A stretch of DNA of 57,641 nt from a virus. Its lineage: Duplodnaviria; Caudoviricetes. This document shows positions 1 through 57,641 of this stretch, one piece after another. The notes beneath the pieces were generated by a model. The model made no database searches, was not told where the DNA came from, and saw only the letters and a list, made by a program, of their open reading frames with translations. Position 1 is the stretch's first letter; the number at the start of each line of letters is the position of its first letter. Made by a program: the position numbers and the translations under genes. The DNA is taken from the IMG/VR virus record IMGVR_UViG_3300021438_000003, positions 1 through 57,641 of that record; one strand, 5' to 3'.

Positions 1-127
1 ATGATCGCACCAGCTCTATTGTCAGACGTTCTTTAGCAAGCATGTTATTGTGCGTATTAATATCGTATTCTTCAATGAATGAAGTTATTGGTTTATTTAG
101 TTCATTACATATCAAAAGCAGTCTACC
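1..127. repeat. Terminal direct repeat, left copy (identical to 57515-57641); circular-assembly overlap
   Basis: atgatcgcac...gcagtctacc occurs exactly at both ends. 127 bp equals a common assembler k-mer, and a gene reads through the junction. Unit genome is about 57,514 bp. Confidence 0.95.
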
Positions 128-295
128 AACACATATTCTATTGACCCCATGTTCATATTTAGCTAGCTGCTGGTGCGTAATTCCTGCTGCCTTAGCTAGC
201 TGCTGACGGCTTAAGCCTTTTTCTATTCTAAAGTCATGTATTCTAGAACCTACATGCTTGTCTATGTTTTTTATAAAGTCATTCTTTTTTGCCAT
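1..295 (-). CDS. XRE-family HTH transcriptional regulator, 5' part (continues across the junction to 57447; 120 aa total)
   Basis: ATG at 295 with GGAGGACT RBS. Translates MAKKNDFIKNIDKHVGSRIHDFRIEKGLSRQQLAKAAGITHQQLAKYEHGVNRICVGRLLLICNELNKPITSF..., an alphaproteobacterial/Rickettsia-type XRE signature. Confidence 0.9.
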   Translation of the reverse strand, partial: MAKKNDFIKNIDKHVGSRIHDFRIEKGLSRQQLAKAAGITHQQLAKYEHGVNRICVGRLLLICNELNKPITSFIEEYDINTHNNMLAKERLTIELVRS

Positions 296-320
296 TATAG
301 TCCTCCTTAAAATAATATTA

Positions 321-629
321 CTATATACCTGTCTTTCTATAAATCCTGTAACATTTATCGCTTGTGTTTATCTTGATATCAACCCCTACTATTTCACATA
401 GCCTGTTAATAATTTCCTCTACTACTTCCGCTTTATCCTTATAACTTGCGTTATTACGCTTATTATGTTCATCCATAATCAAACCAAGTGTAAGGGTAGC
501 TAAAGCTATCTGCTCAGTTGGAGTCATATTAAAAGCTACAATTCTTGATTTATTTCCGTCTTCTACGTTTATAATTGCTTTTTTATTACCATAGAGCAGT
601 CTTTCTATAAATCTTGTTATAATATCCAT
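321..629 (-). CDS. Hypothetical early protein
   Basis: 102 aa ORF, GAGGACTAA RBS, tightly packed operon. Confidence 0.75.
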   Translation of the reverse strand: MDIITRFIERLLYGNKKAIINVEDGNKSRIVAFNMTPTEQIALATLTLGLIMDEHNKRNNASYKDKAEVVEEIINRLCEIVGVDIKINTSDKCYRIYRKTGI

Positions 630-646
630 TTAGTCCTCTTTGTTTT

Positions 647-913
647 TTAATTAAAATTACTAAATCTTTTCTCTTCCATATTTTTATACGTATCACTGGT
701 AAAATCCTCATCCTTTATGATCCTGATAAAATCTTCCTTAACCTGTTCTCTCAATGCTCTAAATTCACCTTGTGTTGAACTATAGATGAAGTTAAGCACT
801 GCGTTTGATAAAAGCTCCATTCTTTTGAAATTGCTTACCATCTTGTAACTGATGCAGAATTTTCTAACTCCGTTTTCTTCTTTTTCCTCTATTATTATTG
901 TCGGGTTATCCAT
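647..913 (-). CDS. Hypothetical early protein (likely start MDNPT at 913)
   Basis: GAGGATTAAA directly upstream of ATG 913. Confidence 0.7.
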   Translation of the reverse strand: MDNPTIIIEEKEENGVRKFCISYKMVSNFKRMELLSNAVLNFIYSSTQGEFRALREQVKEDFIRIIKDEDFTSDTYKNMEEKRFSNFN

Positions 914-914
914 T

Positions 915-1127
915 TTAATCCTCATTTAATTCTTTAGATTTAATTTTCAGAGAGTTTTTAGCTAATTCCTTAAGCATTTTTTTAGTTTTCTTATCCGGCG
1001 CATCATTAATAAAATTCCATAAACTAGCAAGCAACATTGTAAAACTATCTTCGGCATCTACATTTTCGTATAATATACTAACTTTATCGTCTATTTTCTC
1101 TATTGTTATTATTTGTTTATCCGTCAT
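915..1127 (-). CDS. Hypothetical early protein (likely start MTDKQ at 1127)
   Basis: GAGGAC RBS; overlaps the upstream gene end. Confidence 0.7.
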   Translation of the reverse strand: MTDKQIITIEKIDDKVSILYENVDAEDSFTMLLASLWNFINDAPDKKTKKMLKELAKNSLKIKSKELNED

Positions 1128-1320
1128 TCTCAATGTCCTCTTTATCTGTTATTCTTAATAAACAATTATCATAATTATATTTTATCAACTTTTTAATCCT
1201 GTTTTCCAATCTGTTCTCATACATTTCTTTTATCTGTTCAGCTGTAAAACCGATTTTCATTAAATTTTTTGATTCATCCAGAAAAGATTTCATTTCTAAA
1301 TATATATCTTCTTTTTTCAT
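1117..1320 (-). CDS. Hypothetical protein
   Basis: 67 aa ORF, AGGACTAA RBS. Confidence 0.7.
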   Translation of the reverse strand: MKKEDIYLEMKSFLDESKNLMKIGFTAEQIKEMYENRLENRIKKLIKYNYDNCLLRITDKEDIENDG

Positions 1321-1326
1321 TTAGTC

Positions 1327-1557
1327 CTAATTGTTCTTTATATCTATTAAACTATCCATTCTACTTTTAACTATAATGAAACCTGGACGTAGTATAGAAT
1401 ACATGTTTTTTATACCTTGTATTCTCCTTCGCCTATTATGCTTAGCGCAAATAACTTCATGTTTTAATTTAAAACCTAATATTCTAACTTTATTTTCAAT
1501 TAAAAATTCCTGTTTTTCTTTACTTAAAAGGTCAAAAATCGGTAAATATGAAAGCAT
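1327..1557 (-). CDS. Hypothetical protein, NK[IV]R[IL] paralogue family
   Basis: FLIENKVRILGFKLK motif shared with 54943, 56988 and 57175 ORFs. Confidence 0.7.
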   Translation of the reverse strand: MLSYLPIFDLLSKEKQEFLIENKVRILGFKLKHEVICAKHNRRRRIQGIKNMYSILRPGFIIVKSRMDSLIDIKNN

Positions 1558-1770
1558 TTATTTTTTATCCTCGCTATAATAACTATCTATGATAAATCTT
1601 ATTTGTTCATGATCGGTTCTGTAATTATTCTTTGAATCCTGTTGTAATTTAGTTCTTACGTTATCATTAAAATTATAATTTGGTGTACCTATAGCAAAAC
1701 CAATAATGAATGAGATAATAACTGATATTACTGACCACATTATAATTAAACCTAAATCATTATTGTTCAT
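1558..1770 (-). CDS. Small single-TM membrane protein
   Basis: Hydrophobic LIIMWSVISVIISFIIGFAIG segment. Confidence 0.7.
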   Translation of the reverse strand: MNNNDLGLIIMWSVISVIISFIIGFAIGTPNYNFNDNVRTKLQQDSKNNYRTDHEQIRFIIDSYYSEDKK

Positions 1771-1952
1771 TTAAAATAATCCTCCCGCTCAAGTCTATCC
1801 ATTACCATATTTCTAATCAGCTCAAGCTGGTTATTAAAACATAACCATTCATGTTCAGGACTGGTTATATACTTATTGTGGAGCATTGATCTAACTGACA
1901 AATTAACGATAAATTCTACTGCATCCTCATATTGTTTATATATTTCGTTCAT
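1767..1952 (-). CDS. Hypothetical protein
   Basis: ATGA overlaps on both sides. Confidence 0.7.
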   Translation of the reverse strand: MNEIYKQYEDAVEFIVNLSVRSMLHNKYITSPEHEWLCFNNQLELIRNMVMDRLEREDYFK

Positions 1953-2206
1953 TTCCCATGCTCCATTTCCAGAACCTCATTAATGTCATGCTCAATTGTG
2001 GTTTTAAGATAAGCGCAGTATTCTTTCTTTTTATTTAATTCTAGATCAAAAAACCATTTACCAGCAGAGTTTTTATAGCAAATAAGTCTGTAGGACTCAG
2101 TATTGGTTTTTATTCTATCCATAAGCTTGTTTATTTCTTCTATACTGCCAGCTAGTGCAATAAAAGGAATAAGGATCATGGACATGGTTAATATAATGTT
2201 TTTCAT
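1949..2206 (-). CDS. Small exported protein (signal peptide)
   Basis: MKNIILTMSMILIPFIALA signal peptide; GGAGCAAGG upstream. Confidence 0.7.
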   Translation of the reverse strand: MKNIILTMSMILIPFIALAGSIEEINKLMDRIKTNTESYRLICYKNSAGKWFFDLELNKKKEYCAYLKTTIEHDINEVLEMEHGK

Positions 2207-2223
2207 TTCCTTGCTCCATAATA

Positions 2224-2325
2224 TTCACTTAACATTAAACGTAATTTTGTAAGGTTGGTATCTACATATTTATCCCGCCAGTTGTCAGTTACCAGCTCTA
2301 CAATTCTTTTTTCAAGTTCTGTCAT
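2224..2325 (-). CDS. 33-aa hypothetical peptide (not in ORF track)
   Basis: MTELEKRIVELVTDNWRDKYVDTNLTKITFNVK*; strong GGAGGACTAA RBS at 2328-2337. Confidence 0.55.
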
Positions 2326-2327
2326 TT

Positions 2328-2762
2328 TTAGTCCTCCATAGTTTTAAGCTGTTTAGCTAGTTTAATACATTCAAGTATTACATAATTAATATCCCTGTAT
2401 ACCTCATCACCGCATACTTCGAGTTTATCTTTTCTTAATTCTTCGCTCATACTAGGTATAAGATCATCAGCGTGCGCACAATCGAAACCAACCAGAAATA
2501 GTTTTAATTTATCATTACTATTATGCTCACCATCCAATATACCAGTAAAAGTAACTCCGCCGTGTACGTCAAATTTATCAAAAACATCATTTTCCTTACG
2601 GCTTTTATTATATAAAGGATGGTTTACAGGTAGGCTTACATAACCGCATAAATGTTTTAATTTTGGATGTCTTTTGATAACTATTGCATAACCAGTCTCA
2701 ACATTCATAAAGTGGTAGTGATCCAATTCAATTTCCCATTGTTTTTTATTGTTATCAGTCAT
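2328..2762 (-). CDS. Conserved phage protein, HxCGYV/DVHGG/GFDCAH type (putative metal-binding); likely start 2762
   Basis: HLCGYV...HP...DVHGGVTF...GFDCAHADD motifs are recurrent in phage early proteins; GGAGGACTG RBS before MTDNN. Confidence 0.8.
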   Translation of the reverse strand: MTDNNKKQWEIELDHYHFMNVETGYAIVIKRHPKLKHLCGYVSLPVNHPLYNKSRKENDVFDKFDVHGGVTFTGILDGEHNSNDKLKLFLVGFDCAHADDLIPSMSEELRKDKLEVCGDEVYRDINYVILECIKLAKQLKTMED

Positions 2763-2781
2763 TTTCAGTCCTCCTTTTTTA

Positions 2782-3021
2782 TCAATCATCATGTTTACTA
2801 CTAAAAATAATCTCATTTGTTTTTATATCTACAACCCGTATTTCATCATCAGTAGTATTTACTATCTTGTCATAATGATCCGAATTTAGGAATAGGTGAA
2901 AGTCAGTTAAGCTTGTGAATTCCAGATTTTCAAACTTTAACCCTGTTTTAGGTTCTATTACGCTAAGTTTATATTTAGGTTTTAAGTTTTCTTCTTTTAA
3001 TATTTCTTTAAATCTATTCAT
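2782..3021 (-). CDS. Hypothetical protein (likely start MNRFK at 3021)
   Basis: GAGGACTG RBS; the upstream part of the track ORF is occupied by the 3036..3215 gene. Confidence 0.7.
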   Translation of the reverse strand: MNRFKEILKEENLKPKYKLSVIEPKTGLKFENLEFTSLTDFHLFLNSDHYDKIVNTTDDEIRVVDIKTNEIIFSSKHDD

Positions 3022-3035
3022 AATTCCAGTCCTCA

Positions 3036-3215
3036 CTATATTGTTGATAAAACCCAAGTCATTGTGTTTGTTAACGCCAGTATACATAAGAATATCATCA
3101 TGACCTTGTCCCTTGGTATTCTAACATATATAACATTATCATTCTTAAAAGTTACATAAACGTATTTGGCAATTAATAAAAATGATGTAAGTATTACAAT
3201 TGATAAGCCGTTCAT
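3036..3215 (-). CDS. 59-aa two-TM membrane protein (not in ORF track)
   Basis: MNGLSIVILTSFLLIAKYVYV...VMMIFLCILALTNTMTWVLSTI*; AGGAGGACTAACA RBS. Confidence 0.65.
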   Translation of the reverse strand: MNGLSIVILTSFLLIAKYVYVTFKNDNVIYVRIPRDKVMMIFLCILALTNTMTWVLSTI

Positions 3216-3219
3216 GATG

Positions 3220-3726
3220 TTAGTCCTCCTTTATCAATTCCTTGATTCTGTTTATAATAGTGCTATTGTTACCAAAATAGTTTTCAAAATATCCAATACC
3301 GCTTTTAGCAAAGTTGGAGTGTTCGTCATAAGAACGATCAACCAGCAGCTGGTAAGCTTCAAGCTTATAAGTCATGTCCATACCAGCACCACCAAAAGAT
3401 AGTATTTCGTATTTATTACCAATGATATCAAAGTAAGTAAAAGGGATAAGATGGCATATAAGCGCAATATCCTCATCGAATGTAACAGGCTCGTAAGCGT
3501 AATTATACATTAAACATGCTTCTTCAACGTTACGTCTAGCGCAATCATACATTTCAGTTTCATCACTGTAATCATCAATATCAAGGTCAGCTAATTCTTC
3601 CTCTATTGCTTTCTCCGATACCATGAAATCATCGATGTGTTCTTCTATATGAAAATCAGGGATGAAATGCTTATTGTAAAAAGCTTCGCTGTGTATTCCA
3701 GATACTCTCTTAAATAATTTAGTCAT
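3220..3726 (-). CDS. Acidic hypothetical phage protein (LSFGGAGMD motif)
   Basis: 168 aa, very acidic N-terminal half; GGAGGACTA RBS. Confidence 0.8.
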   Translation of the reverse strand: MTKLFKRVSGIHSEAFYNKHFIPDFHIEEHIDDFMVSEKAIEEELADLDIDDYSDETEMYDCARRNVEEACLMYNYAYEPVTFDEDIALICHLIPFTYFDIIGNKYEILSFGGAGMDMTYKLEAYQLLVDRSYDEHSNFAKSGIGYFENYFGNNSTIINRIKELIKED

Positions 3727-3738
3727 GGTAGTCCTCCA

Positions 3739-3921
3739 TTAAATCTTTTTATAATTGAAAATATTTGCTACGTAATTTATATGCTTGCTCGTTGTGCGAG
3801 ACCAATAACCAAGTGTTTTGATTAGTCCGTTAACGTGATCTATTTCTGCGACTCTGGTGTTGTATGAGTATATAAATTCATTATCACATGAAAGATTTTT
3901 AGTGTATCTATCGAATTTCAT
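3739..3921 (-). CDS. Conserved small phage protein (YSYNT...WSRTTSKH)
   Basis: First gene after the leftward promoter; motif recurrent in phage early genes. Confidence 0.75.
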   Translation of the reverse strand: MKFDRYTKNLSCDNEFIYSYNTRVAEIDHVNGLIKTLGYWSRTTSKHINYVANIFNYKKI

Positions 3922-3969
3922 AATCAGTCCTCATTGTTTTTGTTTCAATTAACAGTTGCTCGTAAGCTG

Positions 3970-3998
3970 AATATAACCGCATGTTGTTAACGTGTCAA
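3970..3998 (-). promoter_or_regulatory. Sigma70-type leftward early promoter
   Basis: TTGACA (3998-3993)-17 nt-TATATT on the minus strand. Confidence 0.75.
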
Positions 3999-4098
3999 TA
4001 ACTAAAAATTATTTTTTATTACAAATAATAAAAGTGTGTTGTTAAGGTAACAGGTTTTTGTCCTTGTTTTATTCCATAACACCAAGTGGAGTAACGTT

Positions 4099-4328
4099 TA
4101 CTACCCTTTACTACCCTCCATACTACCCCTCTTACTACCCTTCTATCCCTTATATAATAAAGGATAGAAGGGTAAAGGTAGTAAGGTAGTATACTTTTTT
4201 TATAGGAGTTTGATAGAAAAAATAAAATAAAAAATTTATATAAACAATAGAAACGGCTTTACTACCTTACTACCTTACTACCCTAATACCTTGTAAGGCT
4301 TATATCCATTGGTGTTGAGGGGGTAGTA
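4099..4328. repeat. TACTACC iteron array with central hairpin; probable replication origin
   Basis: Forward copies at 4099, 4109, 4121, 4133, 4260, 4268, 4276; inverted GGTAGTA at 4177, 4185, 4322. Inverted repeat TACCCTTCTATCC...GGATAGAAGGGTA at 4136-4174. Confidence 0.75.
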
Positions 4329-4349
4329 AGCTTAAGGGAAACTGTAGTT

Positions 4350-4700
4350 GTTTAAAACTAATATGATATTAAAATAATATTATATTAGTTTTAAGTTAAC
4401 GTTAAATGTAATATCATAAAACTTAGATAAGACTATTATTTTAATATTATATTGTTTTTAATTAATGTTAAAAGTAATATTAATTAAAAACTTAAATAAC
4501 ACTATTATCATGTTAATTTAATATTATGAGGTAGTGTTATACGTAAGTGCAAATAGTATTAAATTAACATTATGATAGTTTTATTTGTAATTATAAAAAT
4601 AATAAATGCAACATTACAAATAACACTATTGTTTTTGTATTATGATGTTATGATGATAGAAATTAATATTAAAAGTAATATTGCAAAAAAATTTAAAATA
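4350..4700. repeat. Extremely AT-rich tract with degenerate direct repeats
   Basis: AATTAAT[G/A]TTAAAAGTAATATT near 4460 and 4661; AAATAACACTATT near 4494 and 4618; no ORF. Confidence 0.6.
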
Positions 4701-6151: not shown

Positions 6152-6670
6152 ATGAGTAAAAAACTGAAAAATGTTACAGGGTCAGAAAAGAAAGAAGTAG
6201 ATTTAGGTGGTCGACCTGAAATAGTTTTAACAGATGAACAAATATCAAGAGTAGAAACTTTAGCAAGCGTATTACGTGTAGAACAGATAGCAGATTACTT
6301 TGGTATATCTCATAAAACTTTCTATGAAATAATGAAAAGAGATGAGCGAGTTTCTACAAGCTATAAAAGGGGTAAAGCCGTTGCAATTGAGGGGGTTGCG
6401 AGCAATTTAATATTAAAATGTCACGCTGGTGACGTTCCCTCAATGATCTTTTATCTCAAAACTCAAGGTCGCTGGAAAGAGAATCATGATCAACCTGAGG
6501 TTAATGTTAATATTAACACATTAACAGACAACCAGAGAAGACAAAAAGAGATAGATATTAAACTCTACGATAAATATCGTCGAGACATGGGTTTTGGTAT
6601 GGATAGCGAGACTGCGATTGATGCTGAGTTTGTGGTGGAAGAGACTAAGTTATTGAAAGATGATGAGTGA
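6152..6670 (+). CDS. terS: Terminase small subunit
   Basis: GGRP...EQIADYFGIS..TFY HTH and GD..SMIFYLKTQGRWKE motif; upstream of terL. Confidence 0.8.
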   Translation: MSKKLKNVTGSEKKEVDLGGRPEIVLTDEQISRVETLASVLRVEQIADYFGISHKTFYEIMKRDERVSTSYKRGKAVAIEGVASNLILKCHAGDVPSMIFYLKTQGRWKENHDQPEVNVNINTLTDNQRRQKEIDIKLYDKYRRDMGFGMDSETAIDAEFVVEETKLLKDDE

Positions 6671-36641: not shown

Positions 36642-36643
36642 TT

Positions 36644-38896: not shown

Positions 38897-38925
38897 ACAT
38901 AACACATTGGATATAGTACGATAAA

Positions 38926-43127: not shown

Positions 43128-43131
43128 TTAT

Positions 43132-44078: not shown

Positions 44079-44079
44079 T

Positions 44080-46063: not shown

Positions 46064-46095
46064 ATATTTATCCTGTTGTTTTCAGTTTCTTTTTT

Positions 46096-46134
46096 ATATT
46101 TTAATTGTACGATTTTTACGTACAATTAAAATAT
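46096..46134. promoter_or_regulatory. Perfect 16-bp inverted repeat between SSB and polymerase genes
   Basis: ATATTTTAATTGTACG-ATTTTTA-CGTACAATTAAAATAT. Confidence 0.6.
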
Positions 46135-46722: not shown

Positions 46723-46743
46723 AATGATTTTACCTTTTTTAAT

Positions 46744-47916: not shown

Positions 47917-48230
47917 TATTTCTGTTCCTCTTCTAATCTTTCTCTTTGTTTTAAAGCTGCTTTAGTTAGTATGACCAATTCATCTGATTTTAGTTTATCA
48001 CTATTATAATTAGAGCGACCATAATCGATCATATAATCAACAAGTGTTTTAGCTGAATGTAACGCTAATTGTTGAAACAACATTGATTCTTTTTCATCCA
48101 AGTCGCTTTCAGGCTTTGTAAAAGAAAGGATAATATTAAGTGCTACTTCCTTTTCCAGTAAATTGATCTCATTATTCAAGTATCTAGTAGCTATTTCAGT
48201 TTCTATTTTTGATTTATTTGGTAAAAACAT
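47916..48230 (-). CDS. Hypothetical protein
   Basis: 104 aa ORF in the replication operon. Confidence 0.7.
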   Translation of the reverse strand: MFLPNKSKIETEIATRYLNNEINLLEKEVALNIILSFTKPESDLDEKESMLFQQLALHSAKTLVDYMIDYGRSNYNSDKLKSDELVILTKAALKQRERLEEEQK

Positions 48231-48231
48231 T

Positions 48232-50427: not shown

Positions 50428-50559
50428 TTAGTGATGCAGTTTTAAACGAATAAGATTATCCATGCTACTTTCTTTTTTATTCTTAACCATGAAATAACTA
50501 CTCGTTAATAATACAACTATTATTAAAGCTGCAAATAACCTTAATTTAACTGTTTCCAT
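50428..50559 (-). CDS. 43-aa TM peptide (not in ORF track)
   Basis: METVKLRLFAALIIVVLLTSSYFMVK...*. Confidence 0.5.
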   Translation of the reverse strand: METVKLRLFAALIIVVLLTSSYFMVKNKKESSMDNLIRLKLHH

Positions 50560-50737
50560 CTTCTCTTTTCTGTCCATATTCAATTCTCATTTTCAAATCT
50601 GCATCAAGTAATTTTTTGTTGAAATCAACATGCATCGCTTCAATTATTTTCTCATACCTTTTTCTTTGCTTATATAATGAAAAATAAAACAAACCTATCC
50701 ATATTAAAAAATTTATAATTGGCCCTATTATGTCCAT
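50546..50737 (-). CDS. Single-TM small protein
   Basis: IINFLIWIGLFYFSLY segment. Confidence 0.65.
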   Translation of the reverse strand: MDIIGPIINFLIWIGLFYFSLYKQRKRYEKIIEAMHVDFNKKLLDADLKMRIEYGQKREDGNS

Positions 50738-50740
50738 AGA

Positions 50741-50962
50741 TCACCTTATTACTATCCAATCGTTGAACATACAATCTTCCATTTCACATACTAATGAATA
50801 AGGCTCTAGTTTATCGGTAAAAGCAGTACCCGGTTTATTATAGGATTGATAATATTTATACAATTTATCCTGTATTTTCATGATCATATAATCGCTATTT
50901 TCTCTAGTAATGATATTGAAACGATTATTGTAAATAAATCTTATTGCGTCATTGATTTTCAT
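50741..50962 (-). CDS. Tad2/DUF2829-like paralogue
   Basis: MKINDAIRFI...ITR...EDCMFNDWIVI; GGGAGGACTAA RBS. Confidence 0.6.
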   Translation of the reverse strand: MKINDAIRFIYNNRFNIITRENSDYMIMKIQDKLYKYYQSYNKPGTAFTDKLEPYSLVCEMEDCMFNDWIVIR

Positions 50963-50984
50963 TTAATTAGTCCTCCCTTAAATG

Positions 50985-51152
50985 TTAATACTTGAAACTA
51001 TCTTCTGTTAAAGTGCTATTATCCTTACCCTGTTTGTAGTAACTTTTAACAATAAAAGTTACTTGTGATTTTCTAGTGCGTTGACTATCCCTTGCTTCTT
51101 TATCGATTAATTCTGTTAAATCATCGTCAACTTCAATAAGTATTCTTCTCAT
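50985..51152 (-). CDS. 55-aa ribbon-helix-helix protein (not in ORF track)
   Basis: MRRILIEVDDDLTELIDKEARDSQRTRKSQVTFIVKSYY. Confidence 0.75.
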   Translation of the reverse strand: MRRILIEVDDDLTELIDKEARDSQRTRKSQVTFIVKSYYKQGKDNSTLTEDSFKY

Positions 51153-51276
51153 ATCTTCCGCTAAATGAATAAATAATTTGAACTTTATATACTAATTATA
51201 ATTATAAGTAAAGAATAATGTTAAAAATATATTTAGTTATTAACTGTTAATTAATTTAGTTTAAAAATTATGTTTT

Positions 51277-51285
51277 TGTGGATAA
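51277..51285 (-). promoter_or_regulatory. Perfect DnaA box (TTATCCACA)
   Basis: TGTGGATAA on the plus strand in an intergenic gap; degenerate TGTGAATTG follows. Confidence 0.4.
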
Positions 51286-51304
51286 CTTTGTGAATTGTGG
51301 GTAT

Positions 51305-51338
51305 AAAAAAAACCCCTTAAGAATTAACTTAAGGGGTT
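51305..51338 (-). terminator. Intrinsic terminator of the leftward early operon
   Basis: AACCCCTTAAG-6-CTTAAGGGGTT followed by a T-run on the minus strand. Confidence 0.85.
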
Positions 51339-51370
51339 TCTACCAATTTAAGAGTTTATAATTTATATTT

Positions 51371-51916
51371 TCATGTATCGTTAATTACAATACTAAATTT
51401 ATCGACTTGGTCATCTTCATTTCTTCTCATTGTAAATCTACCTTTAATAACAAGATTATTCTTATCGGCACGTTCATCATAATAAGTCCAATAGGTGAAA
51501 TCCTCTCTGATATATAGATTGTTTTTATGTTTTGTTGGGTCAACTATATCAAAATAATTGGAATCCAGATATAATTTAGTAGCTATAATTGCATCTCTTT
51601 CCATTTCTTCATAAATTTTCAGGAAAGCATCGTCTATATTATAATTAATAGTACCATTAATTATTGATAAATCATCACCGAGTATTAAGTCATTATAATC
51701 CAGTTCAAACATACTCATGTCATTGTCGGTATTACCCTTAAAATCCTTTATTGTTGCTTTATAAACCTTGGCATATGCTGTTTTATTACCATTTTCAGCG
51801 TTTGCGTAATCAATAAAAGGTGCATCTGTATAATCAATTTCCATATTGGATAAATAAGGAAACATATATTTGAATCTTGTTTGTAACAGATGCTCGAAAT
51901 TTATTTTGTACTCCAT
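51371..51916 (-). CDS. Hypothetical protein
   Basis: 181 aa; GGAGGTAA RBS. Confidence 0.75.
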   Translation of the reverse strand: MEYKINFEHLLQTRFKYMFPYLSNMEIDYTDAPFIDYANAENGNKTAYAKVYKATIKDFKGNTDNDMSMFELDYNDLILGDDLSIINGTINYNIDDAFLKIYEEMERDAIIATKLYLDSNYFDIVDPTKHKNNLYIREDFTYWTYYDERADKNNLVIKGRFTMRRNEDDQVDKFSIVINDT

Positions 51917-51918
51917 TA

Positions 51919-52752
51919 TTACTTACCTCCAAATATTTTTTCAAATAAACTTTTATTTTTTTCTTCCAATGCAAGTTCAAGTCTATAAAAACGTGCTTCA
52001 AGCATAGCTATTCTTTTATTTGTATCTGGTGATCCGAATTCATCTTTTTCTTTTACTAATGCAGTATTAAGAAGTTCAATTGCAAAACTCATTGATTCAG
52101 CTAAAGCTTTCTGATTATTTATTACTTCATAGATTTTTTCATGTATTTCATCTAAATCATTAAAAGGAATATAAGGTATTTGTGCACCTTCTATCTTCTG
52201 TTTAGCTATATTATTTTCAACATATGGCTTACTCAAATAACCTAAGTTAGTATCTTCGTAAGTATTGAATACCTGTTTTTTATCAGCGTCCAACTTCTCC
52301 TGAGGTTTAACAGTAAATCTGATTTTCTTACTGTTGCTAATATCAATTCTCAATGCGTTTGAGGGTTCATCGATACCTCCGTAAAGTATGCTGTATTCAA
52401 CTACTTTATTCGTAAAATCACGTTTATTTAATTTTAAACCCTTTATTTTCCCTAAGCTGATTCTAACACAGGTAGTTTTAAACATCCCGCTACCATTATA
52501 TCTATGTATTAATCCCTTATCATCATTAGTTGGACTAATTACTACCATATCACCGGGTATATATGTTGTATTTAGTCTTTTATATTCCCTGCCATCTGTT
52601 AACTGATTATATACATCCTCACCGATATAAACAGAGAGCATCAGTTTCTTTTCCTTACCTAAAAGAGAGTATTTAATCCTGACCTGATCTTTTTCAGTAA
52701 AGTTTTTAATTTTAGTAAATGATTTTCTTCCTTGTGCTATTCCGCCGCCCAT
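51919..52752 (-). CDS. Hypothetical protein (basic N-terminal domain, coiled-coil C-terminus)
   Basis: 277 aa; AGGAGGACTA RBS; ends SLFEKIFGGK. Confidence 0.75.
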   Translation of the reverse strand: MGGGIAQGRKSFTKIKNFTEKDQVRIKYSLLGKEKKLMLSVYIGEDVYNQLTDGREYKRLNTTYIPGDMVVISPTNDDKGLIHRYNGSGMFKTTCVRISLGKIKGLKLNKRDFTNKVVEYSILYGGIDEPSNALRIDISNSKKIRFTVKPQEKLDADKKQVFNTYEDTNLGYLSKPYVENNIAKQKIEGAQIPYIPFNDLDEIHEKIYEVINNQKALAESMSFAIELLNTALVKEKDEFGSPDTNKRIAMLEARFYRLELALEEKNKSLFEKIFGGK

Positions 52753-52770
52753 AATAGTCCTCCTTGTTGT

Positions 52771-53004
52771 TTAATTTTTAAAATTTATTAAGCTTTCTTT
52801 TATTAGTTCCCTTTCCTCCAGTAATTTTATATCGTATAGTTTTAAGTATTCATCGATAATGTTACTTATTAAATAACTACGTGTTATGTTCTCTATTCTA
52901 GCTATTCTCTCTAAAAGATCAGTAGTTCTGGTATATAATTTAACAGTAACAAACTTCCTGTCCTTATCAACAGGTTGTTGTATTCGCCCTTTTGGTTTTG
53001 CCAT
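52771..53004 (-). CDS. Ribbon-helix-helix (CopG-like) protein
   Basis: FVTVKL....DLLERIA..ENITRS.LI..IIDEYL. Confidence 0.8.
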   Translation of the reverse strand: MAKPKGRIQQPVDKDRKFVTVKLYTRTTDLLERIARIENITRSYLISNIIDEYLKLYDIKLLEERELIKESLINFKN

Positions 53005-53026
53005 ATATACTCCGATTTTATAATGT

Positions 53027-53200
53027 TTATACGGGATTAATTCCTTTTAAATGGGTTTTACCCATACAAGGTTTACATAAGTTACTTTCATATAAACCGC
53101 TGCCTATTCTAATAATTATAGGTTCGTTTATATATGCGTCACACTTGGTACATAAACCGTCATGCTCTATATCGTCTACTTCAACTTTTCTTGCTTTCAT
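53027..53200 (-). CDS. 57-aa CxxC-CxxC zinc-finger protein (not in ORF track)
   Basis: MKARKV...LCTKCDA...LCKPCMG...*; ATGA overlap. Confidence 0.65.
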   Translation of the reverse strand: MKARKVEVDDIEHDGLCTKCDAYINEPIIIRIGSGLYESNLCKPCMGKTHLKGINPV

Positions 53201-53529
53201 TCTACTATCTCCCTTTCAATCATTCTTAATGTACATGTATCTCTTGTTATCTTTTTTAATTCTTCTACAGTTAGATAATCATTAAGCGGGTCTTTAATTA
53301 AATCCAATATAATCTTTTCTTCTGTCTCATCCATTTCAACACGTGATACTTCCCAATCGGAAGAAGTAAAATCTTCTATTTCAATATCTTTTATCTCTGA
53401 AACTATATTTTCAAAAGAATAATCATCAAATCTATCAATATCACTTAAATCAATTTTAGTATTATTTCGTCTTTCAAACTTCTTAATATCGTTCTCAATA
53501 AAAAGTTTTATACATTCAATTATATTCAT
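53197..53529 (-). CDS. Tad2/DUF2829-like domain plus C-terminal extension
   Basis: MNIIECIKLF...FERR...EDFTSSDWEV. Confidence 0.6.
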   Translation of the reverse strand: MNIIECIKLFIENDIKKFERRNNTKIDLSDIDRFDDYSFENIVSEIKDIEIEDFTSSDWEVSRVEMDETEEKIILDLIKDPLNDYLTVEELKKITRDTCTLRMIEREIVE

Positions 53530-54138
53530 TTACTCCTCAAATTTTTCCAGCTGTTCCCTTAGTTTTTTTAAATTATCCTTTATTTCATTATCCAGATAGT
53601 TCAAATAATATTTAAGATCAGAACCATCATCTTCATAACTACAATCGTAATAGTTATAAGCTAAATTATAATCTTTCAAATATTCTTTTAAAATTTTCTT
53701 TAAATTCTGTATTTCACCATAAGAGGTAAGATTGCCTCCTAAGGATTGTGTTATTTTATCTGTTTTACTTTCTTTATTACCAAAATATTTTACAGGTTCA
53801 TTACTTCTTTTTCTAAACTCTATATATTCTTCAATACTTTTGTTAATATCAGGAAATCGTCGGTATTGCCAATATTGATTAGTTCCGTATAATTCTCTTT
53901 CTGACCAAGTATTATTATCATACCAGATAATTCCTTTTAAAAACTGATTGTCGCTATATTCAAAATCTATATTATCTAGGAAATCTAGATAATCACGATA
54001 ACAATAATCTTTATTAAGAACATATACTTTCTGATAATCATGAATCAAAATAGCGCACATTACGTTAATGATAGAATCAGTATTTTCTTTACTTACCAGA
54101 TTTACATGTTCTAGGAATTTTTCTTTGGCATTTATCAT
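53530..54138 (-). CDS. Hypothetical protein (likely start MINAK at 54138)
   Basis: G.IWY.NNTWSER...G...W motif; flanked by ~60-bp direct repeats. Confidence 0.75.
   Translation of the reverse strand: MINAKEKFLEHVNLVSKENTDSIINVMCAILIHDYQKVYVLNKDYCYRDYLDFLDNIDFEYSDNQFLKGIIWYDNNTWSERELYGTNQYWQYRRFPDINKSIEEYIEFRKRSNEPVKYFGNKESKTDKITQSLGGNLTSYGEIQNLKKILKEYLKDYNLAYNYYDCSYEDDGSDLKYYLNYLDNEIKDNLKKLREQLEKFEE
53534..53593. repeat. ~60-bp direct repeat, copy 1
   Basis: Matches 54144-54202 with 2 substitutions and 1 indel. Confidence 0.9.
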
Positions 54139-54143
54139 TTTAA

Positions 54144-54202
54144 TCCTCAAATTTTTCCAGTTGTTCCCTTACTTTTTTAAATTATCCTTTATTTCATTAT
54201 CC
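54144..54202. repeat. ~60-bp direct repeat, copy 2
   Basis: Non-coding, frameshifted copy of 53534-53593. Confidence 0.9.
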
Positions 54203-54394
54203 CAATACCTCCCATTCATTAGATAGTATTTCCTCAAAAGTGAAAACATTATTAGCAAAATCAACATGTTCGTATAAATCATTGTTAATTCTACAGTACA
54301 TTTTACCTTCAAGTATAATAAATCTGCTTGCTTTATGTTCTACAATCAATCTTGTATCCTGTTTTAATCTGGTAAATGCTTCAACTATATTCAT
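54197..54394 (-). CDS. Tad2/DUF2829-like paralogue
   Basis: MNIVEAFTRLK...EEILSNEWEV. Confidence 0.65.
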   Translation of the reverse strand: MNIVEAFTRLKQDTRLIVEHKASRFIILEGKMYCRINNDLYEHVDFANNVFTFEEILSNEWEVLG

Positions 54395-54588
54395 TCTGTT
54401 ACCTCCCACTCGGATGACATTACCTCTTCACAACTAAATTTACTCTCAGCAACACTAACATATCTATAGGGCTTGGTATTAAATTTGCTATATAAATCAC
54501 CATCTATTACACAAAATTTTCTCTCACCCAGTTTAACTTTCAATTCCGGATTCTGTATTATCTTGTTAAATGCTTCAACTATGTTCAT
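54391..54588 (-). CDS. Tad2/DUF2829-like paralogue
   Basis: MNIVEAFNKI...EEVMSSEWEV. Confidence 0.65.
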   Translation of the reverse strand: MNIVEAFNKIIQNPELKVKLGERKFCVIDGDLYSKFNTKPYRYVSVAESKFSCEEVMSSEWEVTE

Positions 54589-54603
54589 TTTATTATCTCT
54601 TCT

Positions 54604-54723
54604 TTAAATATATAAATTCTCATACCCACAGTCGCAATGATATACATCTTTGTCATCATCGATTGGTATAAGCTCATCTACGTAGTATTCCTTACCACAT
54701 TCATGGCAATTTAAAGTTTCCAT
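54604..54723 (-). CDS. 39-aa zinc-ribbon peptide (not in ORF track)
   Basis: METLNCHECGKEY...YHCDCGYENLYI*; GAGGATTAA RBS. Confidence 0.6.
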   Translation of the reverse strand: METLNCHECGKEYYVDELIPIDDDKDVYHCDCGYENLYI

Positions 54724-54956
54724 CATTTTAATCCTCTATCGTTATACCATTCCATATAATTAATAATGTCCTCCTTAGTTACTTTTTTCCAATCGAAAAA
54801 CAAGTCTTCACTGATGATTAAAGGTAAACTTGTATGTACTTCGTATAATTCACTTTGACCATATCTGTATTGATATCCATAAAAGGAATGTAATAGACTG
54901 GGATGTTTGACAAGTTTACCCTTTCTAGCTATCTCAAAAGCTTTAATTATATCCAT
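54723..54956 (-). CDS. Tad2/DUF2829-like paralogue
   Basis: MDIIKAFEIARKGKLVKH...EDLFFDWKKV. Confidence 0.6.
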   Translation of the reverse strand: MDIIKAFEIARKGKLVKHPSLLHSFYGYQYRYGQSELYEVHTSLPLIISEDLFFDWKKVTKEDIINYMEWYNDRGLK

Positions 54957-55125
54957 TTTTAACTTTTTGTTTAAATATTCTATAATATATTGGTAATAAT
55001 CTAATTTTGTTATGTAATATAAAATCTAATTCCAGACAAACCATTTTAAAGCCCTCTTGATTTTCAGGATCGAATCTCATATGATCTATTCCAGTACCAA
55101 CATCTATTATAATTTCTTTCTTCAT
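54943..55125 (-). CDS. Hypothetical protein, NK[IV]R[IL] family
   Basis: FILHNKIRLLP; likely start MKKEI at 55125. Confidence 0.6.
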   Translation of the reverse strand: MKKEIIIDVGTGIDHMRFDPENQEGFKMVCLELDFILHNKIRLLPIYYRIFKQKVKNGYN

Positions 55126-55349
55126 TTTTCTACTTCCCAATCATCTTCTCCTACTATATCCAATAACTGTCTAACATAGAAATTCCCTAAATCACATATT
55201 TTATCAGTATCAATAAATTTTCCTTTTTTATCATAGTTAATAATTACAGTTTCAAACATATGATTAAAATCAATTATTATAGTTTTATCTGCATTTATTA
55301 TTTTATAAGTCGATTTTTTTGCTTCTTTGTATGCTTCAATTATGTTCAT
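55122..55349 (-). CDS. Tad2/DUF2829-like paralogue
   Basis: MNIIEAYKEAKK...DIVGEDDWEV. Confidence 0.6.
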   Translation of the reverse strand: MNIIEAYKEAKKSTYKIINADKTIIIDFNHMFETVIINYDKKGKFIDTDKICDLGNFYVRQLLDIVGEDDWEVEK

Positions 55350-55714
55350 TATATTACCTCCCAATCGTTGGCTTCTATATCCTCAACAGTTACAGCTATT
55401 GGGTATAAATCATATTTACTAAACCATTCTTTTTCTCCTATTCTTCTTATTTGTTTTCCATCTTTATAAAATTCCTTAGCTATATTAAATGCTATAGGGA
55501 TAGGTTCTACTGTATGATACCAACCATTGAGCATTGTTTTACAATTTATCTTTATAATATTATCAATATCAACTAATACAAAATGTTCAGAGTCGTTATA
55601 TTTACGATACATTTTTAATTCATGATCTATTAATTGATATATTACATAAGGCATAATTTCGTGATGGATTTTCTTGCCGTCCTGTAGTAATTTCAGTGCT
55701 TCTGATATATTCAT
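55349..55714 (-). CDS. Tandem two-domain Tad2/DUF2829-like protein
   Basis: MNISEALKLLQDGKKI...NGW and AFNIAKEFYKDGKQIRR...EDIEANDWEVI. Confidence 0.7.
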   Translation of the reverse strand: MNISEALKLLQDGKKIHHEIMPYVIYQLIDHELKMYRKYNDSEHFVLVDIDNIIKINCKTMLNGWYHTVEPIPIAFNIAKEFYKDGKQIRRIGEKEWFSKYDLYPIAVTVEDIEANDWEVI

Positions 55715-55716
55715 TT

Positions 55717-56007
55717 TTAGTCCTCCTTTTTTGTAATAGTTTCTTCATCAAATTTTGCATTTAATTCAATTATTATAGGTAAAAAAACCTTTAGTTCGTT
55801 AAGATCGAATGCGTTATCTATTAAAAGTCGAAGCTGGATACTCAATAACTCATCATTTTTAAATATATAACCCTCTTTATTATCCTCAATCTCTTCCTTA
55901 GTCATGATGCTAAAGTTTTTATTACCATCATGAACTAGGAAAGTATGGTTATTAGGGTTTTCAAAACAGATATAGAGTGTTTTAGGCTCTTTTATCAATT
56001 CACTCAT
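55717..56007 (-). CDS. Hypothetical protein
   Basis: 96 aa in packed operon. Confidence 0.7.
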   Translation of the reverse strand: MSELIKEPKTLYICFENPNNHTFLVHDGNKNFSIMTKEEIEDNKEGYIFKNDELLSIQLRLLIDNAFDLNELKVFLPIIIELNAKFDEETITKKED

Positions 56008-56254
56008 TTATCTTAATTACCATATTAATATAGCCCTGCTCTTTCAATTCCTTTTCTTCCATACCTTCATTAAAAATCATCAAACATCTACGTTTCAGTT
56101 CAGACTCTAAAACATCAAGTCTTTTTCTATCTCCTGAATCCTTAAATAGATTGTAGGTATATACTAGATGCTCATCGCTCATAGCATACAAGGGAATAAA
56201 TATATCGTATGTCTCCCCGTCTTTTATCATTTTACTCATGTATTCTTTTCTCAT
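56000..56254 (-). CDS. Hypothetical protein
   Basis: 84 aa; MSDEHL...ELKRR motif. Confidence 0.7.
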   Translation of the reverse strand: MRKEYMSKMIKDGETYDIFIPLYAMSDEHLVYTYNLFKDSGDRKRLDVLESELKRRCLMIFNEGMEEKELKEQGYINMVIKINE

Positions 56255-56450
56255 TAATTTTCTCTATTATCCTATCTATTTTTGAGTTTAGAATATTACA
56301 ATCCCTAAAAGGTAACGGGTTAACGTAGTTATCCAACATATCACATAAAAAGTTTAGCGAATGTTCTATTATCTGATCATAAGTAAGATTATGTACTTCA
56401 ACGTAACGTTCATCATTTATAAGTTTTATTAATATATGTTGTTCTGACAC
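56232..56450 (-). CDS. Hypothetical protein, paralogue of 56781..56987
   Basis: EQ.I...NLTY...PLPFR...DRI.E.I shared. Confidence 0.7.
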   Translation of the reverse strand: MSEQHILIKLINDERYVEVHNLTYDQIIEHSLNFLCDMLDNYVNPLPFRDCNILNSKIDRIIEKINEKRIHE

Positions 56451-56479
56451 GGCTTCACTATATTTTTAAATTAAATATC

Positions 56480-56767
56480 TTAATTTCCTGAAAACTTTTT
56501 AAGCTTTTCGGAATTTATACTATTTCTAATATTATTCTGAATTATCCAACCATAGTCTTCAAATATAGCACGTATCTGATCGACATTAAGTTTACCCTCA
56601 CTAACCATTCTAGCCATTACTAAATTAAGAGCTAGCATGAGATTGTTAACTATCTCCATGTTAGCACCTTCAAACACAATACCTGTGTCAGTAATTAAAA
56701 ACATTCTTTTAAAGCCGTTTTTCTCGGCTAGTTTTGATAAATCTTTTAATAGTTCCTTTTTGCTCAT
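56480..56767 (-). CDS. Hypothetical protein
   Basis: 95 aa; GAGG RBS. Confidence 0.7.
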   Translation of the reverse strand: MSKKELLKDLSKLAEKNGFKRMFLITDTGIVFEGANMEIVNNLMLALNLVMARMVSEGKLNVDQIRAIFEDYGWIIQNNIRNSINSEKLKKFSGN

Positions 56768-56780
56768 TTTATTTCCTCAT

Positions 56781-56987
56781 CTATATATCTATTCTTTCAT
56801 TTATCCTATCCAGTTCCTTTTTCAACTCTTTAATATTTCTAAAAGGCAGAGGACTAGAATATTCAAGCGTTACGTAAACTAAAGCTTTTATCAAAGTCTC
56901 AACCGCTTCGTGATAAGTTAGATTAAATAATTTAGTACGAACTTTATCATCTACAGTTCTTCTCAATATTATTTTCTGTTCTAACAT
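56781..56987 (-). CDS. Hypothetical protein, paralogue of 56232..56450
   Basis: AGGAGG RBS; shared NLTY and PLPFR motifs. Confidence 0.7.
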   Translation of the reverse strand: MLEQKIILRRTVDDKVRTKLFNLTYHEAVETLIKALVYVTLEYSSPLPFRNIKELKKELDRINERIDI

Positions 56988-57188
56988 TTATTTCCTCCTT
57001 AATAAACAATTCAATATCTTACAACTATGAAATATCGTATTAGTAACATAAGGTTGTCTTTTATAATACTTAACTTCATATGGTAAAATTCTGATCTTAT
57101 TTCGAAGTACAAATTCATTTCTAGCAAAAAGTTTAATATCTTTTATTATCCTATCAATACTTGCTTCTAAATTTTCACTCATTTTCAT
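56988..57188 (-). CDS. Hypothetical protein, NK[IV]R[IL] family
   Basis: FVLRNKIRILP. Confidence 0.6.
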   Translation of the reverse strand: MKMSENLEASIDRIIKDIKLFARNEFVLRNKIRILPYEVKYYKRQPYVTNTIFHSCKILNCLLRRK

Positions 57189-57345
57189 ATAAATTACCAA
57201 AAGCCAGTATTATCTTCTTCTGTTCTTTTAATTTAAAAGACATCAACCTAATTTTGTTTTTCATTACAAGATCACAGTTAAAAGGTTTGTTGTTTCCATC
57301 ACCTATCCATAAAGTATTTATCAAACCACCTATATTTGCACTCAT
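57175..57345 (-). CDS. 56-aa protein, NK[IV]R[IL] family (not in ORF track)
   Basis: MSANIGG...LVMKNKIRLMSFKLK...NE*. Confidence 0.6.
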   Translation of the reverse strand: MSANIGGLINTLWIGDGNNKPFNCDLVMKNKIRLMSFKLKEQKKIILAFGNLYENE

Positions 57346-57346
57346 A

Positions 57347-57445
57347 TCAATCCCTGAATTCTTTTATAACCATAACTGCCAGTGCTACTATACCTATAAC
57401 CATTGGTATAGACTGTATTAAAAATACCATTTCTATATCACTCAT
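57347..57445 (-). CDS. 32-aa TM peptide (not in ORF track)
   Basis: MSDIEMVFLIQSIPMVIGIVALAVMVIKEFRD*; fills the gap after the XRE gene. Confidence 0.5.
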   Translation of the reverse strand: MSDIEMVFLIQSIPMVIGIVALAVMVIKEFRD

Positions 57446-57446
57446 T

Positions 57447-57641
57447 TTATTTACTTATTACCTTTGCAAGATTATTTATTGCTTCCTTTATTTTCTCATT
57501 CTTAATACTATGAAATGATCGCACCAGCTCTATTGTCAGACGTTCTTTAGCAAGCATGTTATTGTGCGTATTAATATCGTATTCTTCAATGAATGAAGTT
57601 ATTGGTTTATTTAGTTCATTACATATCAAAAGCAGTCTACC
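57447..57641 (-). CDS. XRE-family regulator, 3' part
   Basis: ORF-track 57447..57629 is in frame with the ORF starting at 295 after circularisation; ends ...RLTIELVRSFHSIKNEKIKEAINNLAKVISK*. Confidence 0.88.
   Translation of the reverse strand, partial: GRLLLICNELNKPITSFIEEYDINTHNNMLAKERLTIELVRSFHSIKNEKIKEAINNLAKVISK
57515..57641. repeat. Terminal direct repeat, right copy
   Basis: Exact copy of 1-127. Confidence 0.95.

Follow-up and report, generated by a model that had tools for sequence, protein, structure and literature searches.

Which bacterium does a phage infect when it is met as a free genome in water and several of its genes resemble those of bacteria enclosed in eukaryotic cells? 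The question is raised by the IMG/VR virus record IMGVR_UViG_3300021438_000003, which we took whole; its 57,641 bases, with a unique length of 57,514 bp and no N, are called the window below. An earlier note on this DNA had read it as the complete genome of a non-integrating, short-tailed phage (podophage) of a probable Rickettsiales endosymbiont. We conclude, with a probability of roughly 0.68, that the window is a complete podophage whose host is a Megaira-like member of the Rickettsiaceae, and such a host would most likely be a bacterium living in freshwater protists or algae. The structural module is of the head and portal type of the SAR11 phage HTVC023P, yet its nearest relatives lie in circular elements of Megaira and in a contig of a Rickettsiales metagenome-assembled genome (MAG). 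The evidence supports the earlier Rickettsiales reading and narrows it to Megaira-like Rickettsiaceae of protists: the best plasmid matches of an XRE regulator, a patatin and a phospholipase D (PLD) are all Megaira, and the best phage match of the PLD is Wolbachia phage WO.

The claim that the genome is complete is borne out by its ends. Positions 1 to 127 form a terminal direct repeat, an exact copy of 57515-57641; the IMG/VR metadata class the record as 'direct terminal repeats' with a CheckV completeness of 100; and the junction is read contiguously, with phage sequence on either side, in two more IMG/VR records, one of 58,174 bp with terminal repeats of its own and a portal 97% identical to that of the window (G702), the other of 47,911 bp (G703). 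Hence the genome is either a circle or a circularly permuted molecule with terminal redundancy, and it is free of chromosomal flanks, which had been named beforehand as a sign that would speak against the reading and which appear at the window ends in neither G702 nor G703. GC content is low, as had been stated, at 32.2% overall (0.236 to 0.391 in 2-kb segments), compared with 33.9% in the Megaira phage MAnkyphage_25.80 (OP381185.1) and 35-37% in the Megaira elements. No tRNA genes were found in the window. Gene content was assigned with Pfam and PHROGs on the 91 open reading frames (ORFs) of at least 50 amino acids, with E<0.01 as the cut-off for calling a family absent. Terminase, portal and HK97-type capsid genes are present (phrog_38, phrog_1216, Phage_capsid_4), and the packaging, replication and lysis modules described earlier are all recovered. 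Tail tube, sheath and tape-measure families were found in none of these ORFs, several tail proteins having no family, and the window is a complete Caudoviricetes genome, probably of the short-tailed type. Its packaging, head and tail genes are as follows:

6152-6670, plus strand: small terminase subunit (TerS; phrog_309, 3.9e-15)
7189-9171, plus strand: large terminase subunit (TerL; phrog_38, 2e-62) with a predicted mini-intein at amino acids 158-304
9312-11687, plus strand: portal protein (phrog_1216; 32 IMG/VR relatives at 54-97%)
12018-12425, plus strand: GroES-like protein, typical of this head module (Pfam, PHROGs)
16332-17267, plus strand: major capsid protein, Phage_capsid_4 or Mu gpT-like (Pfam, PHROGs)
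19671-20744, plus strand: patatin-like phospholipase (PF01734), with a 4-nt overlap with the next gene
20741-26463, plus strand: two fibre-like genes of 414 and 1495 amino acids (phrog_32829, phrog_23837, phrog_4636)
27118-30144, plus strand: 365-amino-acid protein and 641-amino-acid Gly/Ala-rich protein, candidate internal or ejection proteins (homology to Megaira elements and MAnkyphage)
30146-32306, minus strand: island of small genes with low GC (0.236, the genome minimum)
32940-38896, plus strand: SU10-type adaptor (32940-33629), phrog_3287 virion protein and three more tail or virion proteins (Pfam, PHROGs)

What the earlier note did not foresee is that this whole structural module is common to the window, to circular 'plasmids' of Candidatus Megaira polyxenophila and to the Rickettsiales MAG contig. 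In tblastn searches with 92 window ORFs (E<=1e-4), the numbers of ORFs shared were:

25 of 92: contig C62 (62.7 kb) of the MAG 'Rickettsiales bacterium AWTP1-34'
22 of 92: Megaira NDG2 'plasmid unnamed2' (CP113869.1, 64.4 kb)
20 of 92: pPCS109 of Megaira (AP017967.1, 109 kb, of which 49 kb were compared)
12 of 92: pBealeia1
8 of 92: HTVC023P
8 of 92: MAnkyphage_25.80
7 of 92: DSL-LC04 (50 of 61.5 kb compared)

The two Megaira elements and contig C62, with 20-25 of the 92 ORFs, keep the order seen in the window (TerL, portal, GroES-like gene, capsid, fibre, patatin, adaptor, tail proteins) at protein identities of only 25-56%; for the NDG2 element, identity is 46% in TerL and 34% in the portal. 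All proteins encoded in 32940-38896, including the adaptor (SU10_adaptor, E 1.4e-14), have homologues on Megaira elements. The 641-amino-acid protein aligns with genes of these elements at 49-50% over 610 amino acids (532 bits for NDG2) and with MAnkyphage at 35% over 402 amino acids, and when it was aligned with species-representative genomes its sole match was the Rickettsiales MAG contig. Among 72,556 plasmids the portal had three matches, namely CP113869.1 and pPCS109, both of Megaira, and pBealeia1 of Bealeia. A portal tree of 29 rows was built with a quick IQ-TREE method that gives SH-aLRT support only, 20 near-duplicate IMG/VR rows and two fragments of less than 550 amino acids having been left out. 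In it, the window and 11 IMG/VR rows form a clade (SH-aLRT 100) that is sister to four Rickettsiales rows (100), among them the Megaira elements and contig C62, with the join supported at 99; the Bealeia rows come next (99), and the pelagiphages, the roseophage, DSL-LC04 and all cultured-phage relatives fall outside. With no fewer than 32 relatives among viral contigs from metagenomes, the lineage of the window is a populated one.

Rickettsiales are also indicated by three cargo genes, each independently and none related to the others. One is the patatin of the structural module; the other two, the PLD and an XRE regulator, belong to a cassette on the lysis side and to the genome junction:

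2-295, continuing from 57514 down to 57447, minus strand: junction XRE regulator (P0084), 120 amino acids in full, of which the first stretch encodes the N-terminal 98
38926-39355, minus strand: overlapping pair of a membrane-anchored protein (39107-39355) and a lipoprotein (38926-39174), seen in the sequence
39352-40035, minus strand: 227-amino-acid coiled-coil protein
40032-40712, minus strand: outer-membrane beta-barrel protein (OMP) with signal peptide, distantly Adr-like (PF13505)
40727-41215, minus strand: single-HKD PLD or Nuc-like protein with signal peptide (PLDc_2, 1.3e-29)
41199-41651, minus strand: T4-type lysozyme (PF00959, 1.7e-38; 45% to a MAnkyphage ORF)
41648-41824, minus strand: 58-amino-acid single-pass membrane protein of holin-like appearance (48% to a MAnkyphage ORF)

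The PLD, correctly called in the earlier note, carries the motifs HNKVMIID at residue 111 and GSFN at residue 125 (HxK(x)4D ... GSxN), while NucT models match it under their cut-offs. It is closest to proteins of Megaira plasmids and Rickettsiales genomes. Its best four matches among the 72,556 plasmids are Megaira (55-57%, E 1e-50), followed by one at 45.7%; six of 50,697 phage records matched, the best being Wolbachia phage WO (WOVitA1) at 49.6%. For a genomic comparison we used the order and genus of the MAG 'Rickettsiales bacterium AWTP1-34' (G403). Homologues occur in 23 of 28 genomes of the genus (E<=1e-8, up to 64%) and in 49 of 301 genomes of the order (E<=1e-30, up to 62%), many of them on single-contig chromosomes, against 10 of 141 genomes in a control across Alphaproteobacteria (E<=1e-15, best 47%). 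Equating the genus of this MAG with Megaira was considered and not adopted, the Megaira plasmid DNA matches being only 65-77% identical.

The XRE protein quoted in the earlier note as resembling a Rickettsia regulator proved to be the ORF that spans the junction. Its best three plasmid matches are Megaira, spelled Megaera in the records, at 44-45% over the full length (E 4e-26), and the next, from Rhodobacterales and Rhizobium, reach 36-38%; 26 of the 28 genus genomes hold a homologue (E<=1e-8, 45-50%). One Megaira homologue (NZ_CP104167.1, 8001-8378, on a 173-kb plasmid) lies directly upstream of the F-type conjugation genes TraL, TraE/K and TraC, and this regulator family is therefore common to a conjugative element and a phage. 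An alignment scan of species genomes with the XRE protein returned one 'Alphaproteobacteria bacterium' MAG at 30% and no usable host signal; such pattern-based scans find few distant relatives.

The patatin, also present as claimed (PF01734, 1.2e-18), has its motifs intact, with GGGERG at residue 14, GTSIG at 49 and DGG at 213 (GGGxRG, GxSxG, DGG). Its best NCBIfam match is CBASS_lipase, at 122 bits under a cut-off of 200. Megaira plasmids and MAnkyphage are its closest relatives: the best two plasmid matches are Megaira (34%, E 3e-40), ahead of Paracaedimonas (26%), and MAnkyphage_25.80 is the single match among the 50,697 phages (35% over 99% of the query, E 4e-52). Adjacency of patatin and fibre (19671-21985 in the window) recurs in MAnkyphage and the Megaira elements, and the N-terminus of the first fibre-like protein is 49% identical over 51 amino acids to that of the MAnkyphage tail fibre. 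Because the patatin gene appears to be translationally coupled to the fibre genes by its 4-nt overlap, the enzyme probably works at the tail on a membrane. A BLAST check of the cargo had been proposed, and the informative cargo genes did not find their best matches in free-living taxa.

MAnkyphage_25.80 offers the closest comparison with a phage already placed on such a host, being recorded on Megaira from a freshwater alga. It is short-tailed and low in GC like the window, its patatin adjoins a long fibre gene, and the shared ORFs comprise the patatin (35%), the fibre N-terminus, the 641-amino-acid protein, the lysozyme (45%), the 58-amino-acid membrane protein (48%), the lipoprotein at 38926-39174 (39%) and two small ORFs. 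In contrast to the window, MAnkyphage measures 38.4 kb, its tail tubular proteins are T7-type, its portal, capsid and terminase are of other kinds, and neither the portal nor the capsid search of the 50,697 phage records returned it. Genes for ankyrin repeats, for a replication initiator and for a toxin-antitoxin pair are present in it and missing from the window, while the window has a polymerase module of its own. MAnkyphage was published as a Megaira phage by George et al. 2023 (Curr Biol), as cited in passages of PMC12644861 and PMC10925606. The earlier statement that Rickettsiales phages are scarcely described apart from WO and gene-transfer agents must be amended to that extent, and holds insofar as few are known.

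The earlier note also set the window apart from phage WO, and this separation stands. Phage WO (Symbioviridae, Wovirus) resembles the window in its patatin and PLD cargo, and an intracellular Rickettsiales host is WO's. In the excerpts of PMC9203015 on which we draw, WO has a patatin-based lytic cassette and, in some variants, a PLD-family endonuclease; it is temperate, with a large serine recombinase, a PAAR baseplate, a eukaryotic association module and ankyrins, and is described there without an endolysin-holin-spanin set. In the window, recombinase, PAAR and ankyrin families are absent, whereas a lysozyme and a spanin-like pair are present. Phage WO is also absent from the portal and capsid search results, and no likeness to it was seen in structural genes. 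The resemblance is one of similar cargo, not of membership.

Several observations weigh against a Megaira-like host. No CRISPR spacer, prophage copy or co-occurrence link to a host was obtained. No close copy exists in the 301 order and 28 genus genomes searched, in which the best portal is 42% identical (two of the 28 genus genomes, E<=1e-10), and at the same threshold the portal is no commoner in the order (3/301, 38-41%) than class-wide (5/401, 28-31%, one of the five being identical to pBealeia1). When contigs of four runs were compared with the 16S of the MAG genus at 95% likeness, the matches were pieces of about 50-70 bases over universally conserved stretches only; the variable parts had no cover, and the comparison says nothing on whether the genus is present or absent. 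Identities to Rickettsiales sequences are moderate (30-64%), and the genus is therefore not fixed. The capsid is closest to that of Bealeia (41%), and DSL-LC04 and HTVC023P (33-34%) come closer than Megaira (31%). Long branches meet at key joins of the portal tree. The plasmid collection contains no plasmid-less taxa such as SAR11, which makes being best among plasmids a biased test. Outside the structural module, the DNA polymerase is closest to those of Pseudoalteromonas, Vibrio and Klebsiella phages (40-42%), and the replication module as a whole looks like those of gammaproteobacterial phages. The LysE transporter has its best matches in Rhizobiaceae MAGs (30-31%). The lysozyme places MAnkyphage (44.6%, 113 bits) first of 1,304 records, in effect tied with Vibrio phage BUCT006 (45.9%, 114 bits) and near Nodularia phages (42.3%, 109 bits). 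Finally, the OMP does not exceed 31% identity with any of the Rickettsiales proteins found, has its close homologues on phage-sized contigs, and has no match in the MAG AWTP1-34 or in any of the 72,556 plasmids.

Some of these points would be natural if the host were a free-living, low-GC aquatic bacterium, such as a freshwater relative of SAR11 or another alphaproteobacterium, the Rickettsiales-like genes then reflecting old exchange and AT-rich composition. Among the 50,697 phage records, the portal matched 18 and the capsid 23, at identities of 25-34%, and these matches comprise HTVC023P/027P (SAR11), CRP-901/902 (Roseobacter), DSL-LC04, and Planktothrix, Synechococcus, Caulobacter RW-like and Alcaligenes phages, so that the head and portal type is that of phages of SAR11, roseobacter, Caulobacter, Alcaligenes and cyanobacteria. 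Repeats similar to those in the fibres of the window occur in pelagiphages, in an OM43 phage and in roseophages, and both the lack of portal enrichment in Rickettsiales and the blindness of the plasmid collection to plasmid-less taxa sit well with this alternative. So does the habitat. Seven runs from two studies, besides a possible source run, contain 0.21-0.36 of the sampled words; their labels are freshwater or aquatic metagenome, in line with the freshwater origin given in the Megaira records, and they carry no sign of eukaryote association, the samples being open-water metagenomes and not host-associated. (Runs with smaller shares, 0.14-0.18, labelled wastewater, anaerobic digester or sediment, were not used for habitat.) Set against this, 22-25 of the 92 ORFs are common with the Megaira and Rickettsiales elements but only eight with HTVC023P, the only places where the tail-side and ejection-like genes recur are those elements and MAnkyphage, the three cargo genes point elsewhere, and the portal tree parts the window from the pelagiphages with a support of 99. 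The HTVC023P-type pelagiphages and their allies (HTVC023P/027P, CRP-901/902, DSL-LC04, Pag-Yong1, Caulobacter RW and Alcaligenes QDWS535) share the type of head module, with portals at 25-30% and capsids at 28-34% to the window, a GroES-like gene between portal and capsid (annotated likewise in HTVC023P, DSL-LC04, the Megaira NDG2 element and pBealeia1) and genomes of 50-65 kb. They differ from the window in sharing only 7 or 8 of 92 ORFs, in having family A polymerase annotations, in lacking patatin, PLD and OMP, and in falling outside the clade that joins the window to Rickettsiales. We therefore consider a free-living host quite unlikely.

A somewhat smaller chance still attaches to another alphaproteobacterial symbiont of protists, from Holosporales or akin to Paracaedibacter, that draws on a mobile gene pool common with Megaira in the same protists. 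Gene exchange among symbionts of one host has been described, in the excerpts of PMC5751055 that bear on it; the second-best plasmid matches of the patatin are Paracaedimonas; and the capsid is closest to that of pBealeia1 (NZ_CP133271.1), a 57.5-kb circular element of the Holosporales symbiont Candidatus Bealeia paramacronuclearis that has the same head module and shares 12 of 92 ORFs. Compared with the Rickettsiales elements, however, pBealeia1 shares fewer ORFs at lower identity (portal 29%, capsid 41%); the stretches compared have 43-47% GC against 32% in the window, and no patatin, PLD or tail-side genes are common to the two. Rickettsiales genomes contain the closest homologues of the PLD and the XRE regulator, which are near-universal there, and the lysis and patatin-fibre genes recur in a phage whose recorded host is Megaira. 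Our preferred host thus remains a Megaira-like member of the Rickettsiaceae.

Such a host would imply that the phage has to pass through a eukaryotic cell to reach its bacterium, as the earlier note proposed, although some Rickettsiales are thought to be extracellular, according to a passage of PMC11077975. How the phage lives is a separate matter, on which the replication module and the small genes bear:

321-3921, minus strand: small early-type genes, mostly without family, including a phrog_2164 protein (2328-2816) with a homologue at 45% on the Rickettsiales MAG contig
41808-50391, minus strand: replication module with SNF2 helicase, VRR-NUC, DNA polymerase (44306-46063), Enc34-type single-stranded DNA-binding protein (SSB), DUF2800 nuclease and VapE primase-helicase
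43470-44078, minus strand: LysE transporter (7e-17), inside the replication module between polymerase and VRR-NUC
44080-44313, minus strand: second XRE regulator, 77 amino acids, inside the replication module (45% to a gene on Megaira elements; eight homologues found)
50428-57200, minus strand: small early genes, including a ribbon-helix-helix (RHH) protein (50985-51152) that is 56-64% identical to genes on Megaira and Rickettsiales elements (Pfam, PHROGs)

The Megaira elements and contig C62 carry ParA, RecT/YqaJ, methylases, toxin-antitoxin pairs, group II introns and insertion sequence (IS) elements, and therefore look like resident phage-plasmids; pPCS109 carries an integrase as well. None of these is found in the window, which in turn has, unlike them, the polymerase/VapE/DUF2800 replication module, the lysozyme-spanin cassette, the OMP and the PLD. 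Integrase, recombinase, ParA/ParB, telomere resolvase, ankyrin, PAAR and toxin-antitoxin families all went unmatched in the 91 ORFs, in keeping with the earlier report of no integrase, ParA/B or telomere resolvase. With the partition and maintenance genes of the Megaira and Bealeia phage-plasmids missing, the window shares with these elements the structural module. Since the maintenance genes of the resident phage-plasmids appear to have been exchanged for a self-contained replication module, the window phage is probably virulent, or at least non-integrating. That the element is instead a temperate phage-plasmid, persisting extrachromosomally like its Megaira relatives in whatever host, seems to us unlikely, if less so than either alternative host. 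Its closest structural relatives are indeed circular replicons in symbiont assemblies, equipped with ParA, toxin-antitoxin, methylases and RecT/YqaJ, and the window has two XRE regulators, an RHH protein and its own replication module. This module, however, is of a type found in lytic phages; ParA/ParB, a toxin-antitoxin pair and an integrase were not found; the order-level and genus-level genomes yielded no portal above the 42% given above; and all 32 close relatives come from a viral-contig collection.

A lytic cycle in a Megaira-like bacterium can be pictured from these genes. Replication would rely on the phage's own polymerase, primase-helicase, SSB and nuclease set, and packaging on the terminase, whose large subunit would first have to splice out its mini-intein. 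Exit from the bacterium may proceed through the small membrane protein, the soluble lysozyme and the spanin-like pair. The overlapping genes at 38926-39355 resemble the layout of an inner and an outer spanin, from which a spanin role is suggested; together with the lysozyme, the pair would point to a host cell that has both peptidoglycan and an outer membrane. The patatin lipase probably acts at the tail on a membrane, which may be bacterial or eukaryotic. The secreted PLD and the Adr-like OMP, if expressed from the lysis-side cassette, might have as their target the host envelope, DNA or the eukaryotic membrane around the bacterium; of all steps in this scheme, this one has the least support. 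The PLD may serve as a nuclease in the periplasm, like those of conjugative plasmids, or it could be a membrane-active enzyme like the Rickettsia homologue so named in the passages of PMC13134042 that we consulted.

Taken further, these steps would describe a widespread, apparently virulent lineage that preys on obligate intracellular Rickettsiaceae in freshwater protists and crosses both bacterial and eukaryotic membranes by means of a tail-associated patatin, a secreted Rickettsia-type PLD and an Adr-like surface protein. We put this forward as a tentative picture, and a doubtful one. If it is true, a phage whose host stays inside eukaryotic cells at all times is transmitted as free virions in lake water. 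Two of these enzyme families, patatin and PLD, occur independently in phage WO, and the window carries homologues of phospholipases thought to be used on membranes by Rickettsia and by phage WO.

Few phages of obligate intracellular bacteria are known, and the Rickettsiales literature that we searched names WO and its relatives, gene-transfer agents and one Megaira phage. The window adds a third, structurally distinct lineage, which looks lytic rather than resident, and a number of protist-symbiont replicons deposited as 'plasmids' prove to be part of this phage lineage. In the literature available free of subscription, main texts only, we met neither a description of the Megaira or Bealeia 'plasmids' as phages nor any account of such a lineage. 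Should the link to the host hold, the lineage could serve to investigate by what route phages get to bacteria that live inside eukaryotic cells, and it may be an agent of mortality and gene flow for cosmopolitan protist symbionts.

Not every feature proposed earlier fared equally well. The LysE gene is present and a LysE-like gene (27%) also occurs on the Rickettsiales MAG contig, but as a host clue it is uninformative, given its roughly 30% identity to Rhizobiaceae MAGs. The polymerase is assigned to phrog_1252 'DNA polymerase' (3e-161), whereas its membership of family B, as proposed, could not be confirmed: that assignment would depend on a single weak local alignment with E. coli Pol II over residues 325-412 (E 6e-4 and 4e-7). 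No Pfam polymerase family matches it at E<=10 except for a trace of a 3'-5' exonuclease, and simple PolB motif patterns are absent from it. P22-like ejection proteins were likewise not recovered, the sole trace being an insignificant P22_gp7 match (E 1.4) on the 641-amino-acid protein, and four tail-region proteins had no sequence match in the PDB.

The Adr-like OMP takes an intermediate position. It is a beta-barrel protein, and its sole NCBIfam match, aligned over the full length, is Rick_Adr (NF052636), yet at 87.7 bits against a curated cut-off of 210, so that it would be a distant relative of the Rickettsia adhesin Adr and not a member of that family. At E<=1e-8 it matches 35 of the 301 Rickettsiales-order genomes (best about 31%) and 4 of 401 class-wide (best about 30%), and in a protein atlas it falls among generic OMP clusters, the first of which is viral. 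The single OMP match in the scan of species genomes, in a Caulobacterales MAG, was rejected as a host signal. The 3,013-bp contig concerned, JBILVS010000274.1, is a misbinned fragment of a related phage, as judged by a GC of 35% in a MAG of 60-66% and by the phage genes around: it carries a virion protein, an OMP 48% identical to that of the window and, following the OMP as in the window, the coiled-coil protein. Binning errors of this kind could mislead host calls.

Three further features of the window deserve mention. The insert in TerL, of about 147 amino acids, begins with Cys, ends in His-Asn and is followed by Cys; it matches PT-HINT and the N- and C-terminal intein models TIGR01445 and TIGR01443, has no homing-endonuclease domain, and is missing from the TerL of the Megaira elements and of HTVC023P. 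By these sequence criteria it appears to be an intein, and splicing is predicted. The minus-strand island at 30146-32306 interrupts the plus-strand structural genes and encodes a lipoprotein (30354-30971), a small membrane protein and an acidic 134-amino-acid protein, for none of which was a family match found. The minus-strand gene at 55349-55714 gave a weak N-terminal match to the Thoeris anti-defence Tad2-like domain (E 2e-4 over 19 residues, below the cut-off) that is probably not meaningful.

A last observation concerns pBealeia1, where, within 2344-4635 and 30825-39255, six RebB R-body genes and a phage head module stand on the same replicon. The module consists of the portal, GroES-like and Mu gpT-like capsid genes of the window lineage, and Bealeia is a symbiont of Paramecium. 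R bodies have long been linked with phage-like particles.

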